NCBI GenBank assembly: GCA_964443025.1 | Contig: CAYUEL010000002.1 | Coordinates: 2,916-66,915 of the forward strand | Reading direction: 5' to 3' | From: an uncultured Gammaproteobacteria bacterium | GTDB taxonomy: Bacteria > Pseudomonadota > Gammaproteobacteria > JABCZS01 | DNA length: 64,000 bases | In this document: piece after piece, positions 58,743 through 58,835 of the stretch | Position numbering within the stretch: the first letter of the stretch is position 1 | Layout: the number at the start of each line of letters is the position of its first letter | The notes under the pieces: generated by a model | Told to the model about the DNA's origin: nothing | Databases searched by the model: none | What the model saw: only the letters and a program-made list of their open reading frames with translations | Translations under genes and position numbers: made by a program

Positions 58743-58835
58743 GTAACAGGATGATATCAATTTGATATCTTTTTTATATCTATTTGATATCAGGCAAATA
58801 AAAGTGATATCAATCAGCATTGATACAAGATATCA
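58743..58835. promoter_or_regulatory. Array of three (G)ATATC-N5-GATATC palindromic elements including a 16-bp inverted repeat (58766-58781 / 58819-58834); candidate oriT / transfer-operon operator
   Basis: Six GATATC hexamers lie within 93 bp, arranged as GATATCaatttGATATC, ATATCtatttGATATC and GATATCaaataGATATC. The array is 200 bp upstream of the mobC-like gene. Confidence 0.5.

Follow-up and report, generated by a model that had tools for sequence, protein, structure and literature searches.

What a tight cluster of short palindromes does immediately upstream of a set of conjugation genes is the question raised by a locus on contig CAYUEL010000002.1 of an uncultured gammaproteobacterium (assembly GCA_964443025.1), of which a stretch of 64,000 nucleotides, referred to here as the window, was analysed. 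The cluster, an array of GATATC hexamers, sits in a 497-bp gap (58539-59035) upstream of the gene for a 129-residue protein that resembles ribbon-helix-helix (RHH) DNA-binding proteins, and this gene is followed by those for a coupling protein and a relaxase. Judging from comparative sequence analysis, we consider it probable that this gap is an origin of transfer (oriT) of the type found in the F plasmid, and that the GATATC hexamers are the sites of the adjoining RHH-like protein. The array would most likely comprise accessory-protein sites comparable to those of TraM or TrwA within such an oriT, and would probably also act as an operator. A preliminary description of the window had proposed sites for an RHH-type relaxosome accessory factor and a candidate oriT or operator at this position. 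This proposal appears well supported by the presence of an F-type nick core with sites locked in position relative to it, and by a hexamer that seems to change together with the N-terminal domain of the neighbouring small protein across related elements.

Hexamers at fixed distances from a predicted nick

A pattern search of the window placed GATATC at 58753, 58764, 58786, 58806, 58829 and 58840. The occurrence of six copies within 93 bp, as the preliminary description had reported, is thereby confirmed; a first-order model of the local sequence predicts 0.02 copies in 93 bp, giving a Poisson probability of six or more of approximately 1e-13, or approximately 1e-10 once corrected for all spans in the window. 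When all hexamers were compared, GATATC was the most locally clustered in the 64 kb. The range originally given for the array, 58743-58835, was 10 bp too low and cut off the last hexamer, the six clustered copies in fact spanning 58753-58845. A further lone copy lies beyond this cluster at 58927, with others elsewhere in the window, and TATATC at 58775 is a degenerate member of the array, which totals eight sites (S1-S8) rather than the three 17-bp GATATC-N5-GATATC units first described. Two of these units are perfect (58753-58769 and 58829-58845), whereas the middle one (58775-58791) is TATATC-N5-GATATC and the copy at 58806 is unpaired, outside any 17-bp unit. With up to one mismatch allowed, the 17-bp pattern occurs four times, all within the array, against 0.2 occurrences expected. 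The perfect 16-bp inverted repeat with a 37-bp gap (ATATCTATTTGATATC and GATATCAAATAGATAT) that had been noted is real, but its arms (58776-58791 and 58829-58844) join the middle and right units and not the outer ones. The hexamers at 58753, 58764, 58775 and 58786 are in exact 11-bp phase, a regularity that was absent from the earlier description.

Approximately 90 bp to the left of the array, on the strand opposite to the transfer genes, is a predicted nick core (58660-58690, minus strand) that reads GCAAC-ACC-GTTGC-GACAGGTGT/GTGT, where the slash marks the nick and the arms of the inverted repeat occupy 58673-58677 and 58681-58685. The equivalent strand of the F nick region, reached via the nick sequence in NC_002483, reads GCAAAAAC-TT-GTTTTTGC-GTGGGGTGT/GG, and experiments place the F nick at TTTGCGTGGGGTGT/GGT (PMC2504302). 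The two cores align base for base and have the same geometry, in which an inverted repeat is followed by 9 nt and then by the nick (GGTGT/G); on the plus strand, ACACCTGTCGCAACGGTGTTGCTGATGATTTTT in the window is matched with ACACCCCACGCAAAAACAAGTTTTTGCTGATTTTT in F. From this alignment the nick is predicted to fall between 58664 and 58663 of the minus strand, and the oligonucleotide 5'-GTTGCGACAGGTGTGTGTATTT-3' is the predicted candidate substrate for cleavage by the relaxase domain. A nick site had been anticipated nearby, and the core of F TraI type at about 58660-58690 agrees with that expectation, at a position outside the range first given for the array.

Related loci allowed the conservation of this arrangement to be examined. 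A coupling-protein search of genomes gave L001 and L003, from a Legionellales metagenome-assembled genome (MAG), and L002, from a Gammaproteobacteria MAG. Coupling-protein homologues also gave L004, which is on the same contig as L003 (97,274 bp), L005, which is in the same MAG as L002 (GCA_021773275.1), and the distant relatives L008 and L009, with coupling proteins 37-38% identical. Scans of DNA with a pattern from the conserved nick core gave one true relative, L014, on a metagenome contig, together with six chance or unclear matches. A blastn search of the region against PLSDB plasmids gave no match, and a metagenome scan with the coupling-protein alignment found nothing; the few matches in Rfam, all to eukaryotic families, were far below threshold and attributable to chance. 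The gap ahead of the small gene is organised alike in every related locus but L001, and ACACC-N3-CGCAAC-N3-GTTGC is common to these gaps with the same exception. CACC, CGCAA and GTT are invariant across eight loci and F in a manual and MAFFT alignment that carries no significance statistic.

When offsets are counted from the first base of the GCAAC repeat, the GATATC sites of the window lie at +80, 91, 102, 113, 133, 156, 167 and 254. L005, with the same hexamer at +80, 91, 102, 113, 134, 156, 167 and 254, and L014, with GACATC/GATGTC/GATTTC (GAYRTC) at +80, 91, 102, 113, 133, 155, 166 and 253, have site offsets within 1 bp of these. In L003, GAAATC/GATTTC/GATGTC (GAWWTC) is found at +79, 90, 101, 112, 132, 165 and 251, which is within 1-3 bp of the window's offsets at seven of the eight positions, the +156 site being missing. 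Similar offsets are seen in L004, with GGCGCC/GACGTC/GGCGTC (GRCGYC) at +81, 103, 124, 145, 158, 167 and 250, and in L002, with GACGGC/GCCGTC at comparable positions. Five different hexamers, GATATC, GAWWTC, GAYRTC, GRCGYC and GACGGC, are in this way laid over one site geometry, and some of the relatives' hexamers are non-palindromic at the same positions. In the distant L008 and L009, five AATTAGCAC-type direct repeats and GCATTC/GAATAC hexamers follow downstream of the same core in 11-bp phase.

Taken by site, S1-S4 (GATATC, GATATC, TATATC and GATATC; 58753-58791) span +80 to +113, or approximately +90 to +128 from the predicted nick. S5, a lone GATATC (58806-58811, +133), has counterparts at +132 to +134 in L005, L003 and L014, and S6-S7 (GATATC-AAATA-GATATC; 58829-58845, +156 and +167) recur at the same offsets in L005, L014 and L004. 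S8, a lone TGATATCA (58927-58932, +254) approximately 105 bp ahead of the start codon, has a lone counterpart at +218 in L002 and at +250 to +254 in L005, L003, L014 and L004. When the window is compared with L005, the locus with which it shares a hexamer, 34 of 36 hexamer positions are identical as against 10 of 20 spacer positions (Fisher p = 2e-4), and in ungapped register the remainder of the gap shows 24-36% identity. The constraint falls on the hexamers and not on the surrounding DNA.

The adjoining protein and the type of hexamer

The gene for the small protein (59036-59425, plus strand; start assigned from the ribosome-binding site GAGAGGA and the N-termini of homologues) is the sole gene that adjoins every array, and the oriT with its array and the RHH-like gene are syntenic in the window, L002-L005, L008, L009 and L014. 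The family is very rare, with five cluster representatives among 1.84 billion proteins. Exact-protein look-ups found neither the 129-residue protein nor the coupling protein of the window on record, and a word-indexed homologue search with the former returned only itself. It has no Pfam or NCBIfam match at threshold and no match to the Pfam family Tra_M. The MobC label that the preliminary description had attached to this gene is unsupported, no match to MobC (Pfam PF05713) being found for any of the seven family members even at E-values up to 10. Weak matches, all at residues 6-37, link the family to the RHH families NikA-like, DUF6290, CopG antitoxin and RHH_1; those to NikA-like proteins and to DUF6290 were each obtained with five of the seven members, at best E-values of 4.7e-3 and 1.5e-4, respectively. 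In the predicted structure, coil at residues 1-11 is followed by helices at 12-25 and 28-37, a pattern compatible with an RHH fold, with a predicted local distance difference test score (pLDDT) below 60 in this N-terminal part, and a helical hairpin at residues 64-113 near the C-terminus is the better-supported part of the model.

Across the related loci the small protein and the hexamer vary together. The N-terminal 44 residues are 66% identical to those of the window in L005, the locus that shares GATATC, and 57% in L003, 52% in L014, 39% in L004 and 30% in L002. By contrast, the coupling protein of L005 diverges further from that of the window than any other in the close set, at 57% identity as against 66-67% for L001-L003. 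The gene upstream of the gap encodes a DUF6471 protein in the window, L002 and L003, KorA in L004 and L005, and an unrelated product in L014; the DUF6471 proteins of the window and L003 are 72% identical and the KorA-like proteins of L004 and L005 are 73% identical, despite different hexamers in each pair. As far as these alignments allow it to be judged, hexamer type follows the N-terminal domain of the small protein and not the upstream gene or the coupling protein. Residue 3 changes with the hexamer centre (R with TA, Q with AA or TT, K with CA or TG), and lysine or arginine at position 5 accompanies G/C-rich hexamer cores, both of which are patterns and not proof.

It is possible, if doubtful, that these observations reflect a more general design, in which one rigid scaffold of eight sites is fixed to the base pair relative to the nick core, only the hexamer and the N-terminal reading head being swapped, and insulated, orthogonal relaxosomes operate in one cell. 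As part of this tentative proposal the accessory protein would be a previously undescribed and very rare one. The transfer modules of L003 (GAWWTC) and L004 (GRCGYC) share one contig, and those of L002 (GACGGC) and L005 (GATATC) share one MAG; differing hexamers in co-resident modules are the pattern expected if such elements are kept orthogonal. If the proposal were true, these orthogonal pairs would represent natural insulation against cross-mobilisation, and there would be room for relaxase-less modules of oriT plus reader, such as L014, that parasitise a matching element. Whatever its cause, one geometry with five hexamers, including differing ones in a shared host, offers a natural series for the evolution of specificity between accessory proteins and DNA.

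Two of the related loci depart from the complete arrangement. The nick core of L014 is complete and is accompanied, within 2340-3103, by an array of eight sites (GACATC/GATGTC) and the RHH gene, with no coupling protein or relaxase in the 14-kb locus; L014 may be a module whose mobilisation relies on a matching element in trans. In L001 (3300-3660), unrelated sequence starts approximately 80 bp ahead of the RHH gene, and neither nick core nor array is present; this locus is apparently a module of RHH protein, coupling protein and relaxase without its own oriT.

The same tentative proposal would make the C-terminal domain of the small protein and the tail of the coupling protein another pair, swapped independently of the first. 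The small proteins of the window and L004 have the most similar C-terminal domains (35%), and the coupling proteins of both have an acidic stretch and a terminal phenylalanine (...DEYVNERF and ...DEHKYEQF), ending ...E-x-F; the L004 protein is encoded at 3501-5351 of its locus, and the coupling proteins of L001 and L003 share a different tail. In F, the tail of TraD docks its terminal phenylalanine in TraM. The likeness of the window and L004 tails is reminiscent of this pairing, in a sample too small for a conclusion.

A proposed relaxosome, its precedents and its alternatives

In the mechanism that we propose, one hexamer (core TGATATCA) would be read by each dimeric RHH module of the 129-residue protein. 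Because hexamers 11 bp apart sit on one face of the helix, one tetramer, consisting of two RHH dimers, may bind each GATATC-N5-GATATC; by this stoichiometry, which we infer, S1-S4 would hold two adjacent tetramers and S6-S7 a third, with S5 and S8 as single sites. The tetramers and a host bending protein could jointly coat and bend the DNA approximately 90-180 bp from the nick. A candidate site for integration host factor (IHF) is present at 58702-58714 (minus strand; AAACAATTGGTTG, one mismatch to WATCAANNNNTTR), approximately +38 to +51 from the predicted nick. An IHF-like match with at most one mismatch recurs at offset +29 in the same orientation in four of six loci, being perfect in L005, and a second is found near +194 in three loci. 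The bent complex would help the MOBF relaxase to melt and cut the minus strand at about 58664/58663, just 3' of the GCAAC-N3-GTTGC hairpin. Because the nick is predicted on this strand and at this position, antirestriction genes on the left are on the side predicted to be transferred first, and they would be expected to enter the recipient first. The C-terminal helical domain of the small protein probably links the complex to the coupling protein, and the protein probably represses its own operon through the promoter-proximal sites S6-S8, in the manner of TrwA and TraM. A promoter-like TTGATA-16-TATCTT at 58820-58847 overlaps S6-S7, and L014 and L003 have a promoter-like match with its -35 element over the equivalent site.

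Several plasmids offer precedents for this scheme. TraM of F-like plasmids is a 127-residue tetramer whose RHH heads recognise short motifs that vary from plasmid to plasmid (GANTC for pED208, A(G/C)CG(G/C)T for F), and binding of two motifs by one tetramer is best when they lie 11 bp apart (PMC3159463). The TraM sites of F, sbmA-C, are upstream of traM. Counted from the nick, the F relaxosome has IHF over +23 to +60 and TraM over +93 to +117 (bioRxiv 2024.12.19.629322), and the IHF-like site and first array of the window are found at these distances. As in F, the nicked strand of the window is opposite to the transfer genes, the coupling protein is TraD-like, and the short motifs are element-specific and presumably read by RHH dimers of a protein of approximately 127-129 residues; the distance from nick to accessory gene is approximately 320 bp in F and 372 bp in the window. 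The 129-residue protein, however, has no detectable homology to TraM. In F, traJ and traY follow the accessory gene, whereas in the window the coupling protein and relaxase genes follow directly. The F motifs are interleaved, with 12 bp between alternate motifs, in contrast to the 11-bp spacing on one face in the window, and the host of the window's element is a Legionellales-type bacterium.

The complex of pED208 TraM with sbmA (PDB 3ON0) provides a structural precedent for one RHH dimer on each short palindromic motif of GA..TC type. Specificity likewise differs between related plasmids, and two motifs 11 bp apart suit one tetramer. The pED208 motif GANTC has 5 bp, however, as compared with the hexamer of the window, and four interleaved motifs there bring two tetramers onto opposite faces, whereas the window has eight sites on one face. 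R388 (IncW) shares with the window the order of oriT, RHH accessory protein, coupling protein and MOBF relaxase (trwA-trwB-trwC). TrwA binds oriT, enhances nicking and represses trwABC (PMC3264647; PMC4853378), and we propose that the window's protein may behave alike towards its own oriT and operon. IHF takes part in the R388 system, and a candidate IHF site is present in the window; the relaxase domain of the window is similar to that of TrwC (E 1.6e-34), and its nick core is likened to that of F, the comparison having been made with the F sequence. We propose that the system may work like TraM or TrwA, a likeness of function and not an assignment to either family, and hhalign finds no TraM homology. 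The feature is of an ordinary kind, a tidy new example that extends what is known from F, pED208 and R388 and overturns none of it.

Several observations weigh against an F-like oriT with hexamers read by the adjoining protein. The RHH assignment is below the Pfam threshold (best E-values to RHH families 1.5e-4 to 5e-3), the profile match of the family to AvtR in the PDB is weak (E 0.38), and AlphaFold confidence in the N-terminal domain is low in both the single-sequence and the five-sequence models. A Foldseek search of the PDB with the model gave no match, and hhalign of the family profile against F TraM gave a probability of 0.7%, with no homology detected. The co-variation is drawn from only six to eight loci, several of them of the same MAGs, and the window and L005 share a hexamer yet differ at predicted strand positions (P5/L7 and Q5/P7, respectively). 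The IHF-like matches allow one mismatch in AT-rich DNA, in which chance matches are common, a promoter search across the loci found no consistent strong promoter, and no TraY-like second accessory gene, which F possesses, was seen in the window.

Alternative functions of the array would have to accommodate the same observations. It is unlikely that the array is only a transcriptional operator, through which the small protein or another repressor would act on the operon of RHH protein, coupling protein and relaxase with no part in a relaxosome. Such a role would account for the promoter-like matches over S6-S7 and its equivalents and for the placement of S8 between the array and the gene, and both TrwA and TraM are autorepressors. 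Eight sites over 180 bp that are fixed to the base pair relative to a nick core nevertheless exceed the needs of a simple operator, S1-S4 coincide with the position of TraM in the F relaxosome, and L014 keeps array, nick core and RHH gene without an operon to regulate. An operator is moreover compatible with accessory-protein sites in an oriT and does not exclude them. We also regard as rather improbable the binding of the hexamers by some other protein, be it encoded by the upstream DUF6471 or KorA-like gene, a host factor or a further regulator belonging to the element. The location of DUF6471 directly upstream in three loci, together with the weak matches and low-confidence model on which the RHH fold of the 129-residue protein rests, would favour this possibility. 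Against it, the window, with DUF6471, and L005, with a KorA-like gene, both have GATATC, closely similar DUF6471 proteins (window and L003) and KorA proteins (L004 and L005) accompany hexamers that differ, and L014 is without both genes. DUF6471 and KorA were rejected as binders, as neither tracks the hexamer, and a host factor cannot account for hexamers that differ between elements of one MAG (L003/L004 and L002/L005).

Short repeats phased at 11 bp also resemble replication iterons or a partition centromere (stbDR or parS-like) beside transfer genes. L009 has ParB-like genes upstream, and the oriT region of R388 includes StbA repeats with a comparable period. However, the window has no adjacent rep, par or stbA gene and none is conserved among the loci, the RHH-like gene alone always adjoins the array, and the array is position-locked to the nick core, which makes such a function very improbable. 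It was rejected, the neighbouring genes being DUF6471, KorA or unrelated ones that vary under the same architecture. The region is AT-rich (30% GC), as might suit a chance cluster of EcoRV sites or low-complexity DNA, but the probability of such a cluster is negligible: the local first-order model gives P of approximately 1e-13, L005 keeps the hexamers and not the spacers, and relatives have other hexamers at matching positions. Together, these findings effectively refute clustering by chance.

Further parts of the region and the neighbouring polyketide cluster

Other conserved sequences flank the predicted nick. The block AACCCAATCATTAA (58604-58617), near-invariant in five aligned intergenic regions, is on the predicted first-transferred side of the nick, and F has TTTAACCCACTCC at a comparable distance. 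A small inverted repeat, GCGC-TCAC-GCGC followed by CTGTGGG (58632-58650), is conserved in all five of five aligned loci on the leading side of the predicted nick, and forms a small hairpin on folding of the minus strand. F has the inverted repeat GGTGGT-tctc-ACCACC at the same relative place, and any role of the repeat in the window is one that we infer. Between the array and the RHH-like gene, approximately 38 bp ahead of the start codon, the plus strand has a terminator-like match, the hairpin TGGCGCA-CTCA-TGCGCCA followed by a T-tract (58981-58998). Its stem is retained, with differing sequences, in six loci (the window, L001, L002, L003, L005 and L014), with compensatory changes in four of six pairs, and it is present in L001 despite the loss of the oriT there. 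This hairpin could be an attenuator or terminator, a stabiliser of the 5' untranslated region or a palindromic operator. The same nick-core pattern (ACACACCCTACGCAACTGCGTTGCT) was also found on a GC-rich metagenome contig, L010 (4477-4580 as oriented), where three GCATCCCA/GTATCCCA repeats spaced approximately 10-12 bp apart begin approximately 50 bp past the core and no RHH gene was found adjoining the pattern. L010 may represent another, unrelated lineage that uses this oriT design.

The coupling protein (59425-61275, plus strand; PF10412, E 7.9e-103) is of the F TraD-like type, its best match being TIGR02759 TraD_Ftype at 433 bits (E 1.7e-129), which is below the curated cut-off of 521. The MOBF relaxase/helicase gene (61285-64000, plus strand) runs off the window. 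Its assignment to a MOBF system, made in the preliminary description, is borne out by matches to NF041492 MobF (231 bits, cut-off 100) and PF08751 TrwC (E 2.7e-64), and it resembles the pCU1 TraI, F TraI and R388 TrwC relaxase domains at E-values of 1e-34 to 1e-37. The DUF6471 gene (58287-58538, plus strand; PF20075, E 4.3e-18) is just left of the oriT region, and the antirestriction genes, of ArdA and ArdB/KlcA type, occupy 57122-58155 on the minus strand (PF07275, E 3.5e-19; PF03230, E 2.9e-27). Further left, a PIN_2-domain toxin gene (55912-56340, minus strand) overlaps by 4 bp an upstream open reading frame (ORF) of 135 residues (both within 55912-56744); the two probably form a toxin-antitoxin pair, with the antirestriction genes on one side and a biosynthetic cluster on the other.

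Most of the window, 2588-54000, is occupied by this cluster, a large trans-acyltransferase (trans-AT) polyketide and nonribosomal peptide synthetase cluster. It comprises megasynthase ORFs of 1572, 4941 and 4110 residues, a free-standing acyltransferase and an acyltransferase-enoylreductase, a beta-branching cassette of 3-hydroxy-3-methylglutaryl-CoA synthase, ECH1, ECH2 and a ketosynthase, and a luciferase-like monooxygenase, two P450s, a phosphopantetheinyl transferase and an ATP-binding cassette transporter. Because it is directly beside the predicted leading region of a conjugative element, the polyketide cluster may be mobile cargo. A predicted oriT with a probable nick has been located for an uncharacterised conjugative element of a Legionella-like bacterium beside this cluster, which provides a concrete fragment for asking whether the cluster is mobile. 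Two genes of the Peptidase_M24 (methionine aminopeptidase) type are found in the cluster, one beside the megasynthase genes (39808-40653) and one at its right-hand end (52990-53844). Extra copies of housekeeping enzymes within such clusters can be self-resistance genes, and these copies hint at a product that targets methionine aminopeptidase. Also inside the cluster is a gene (49682-52894) for a protein of 1070 residues, in which the sole recognisable domain is the head of a poly(A) polymerase or CCA-adding enzyme at residues 600-727.

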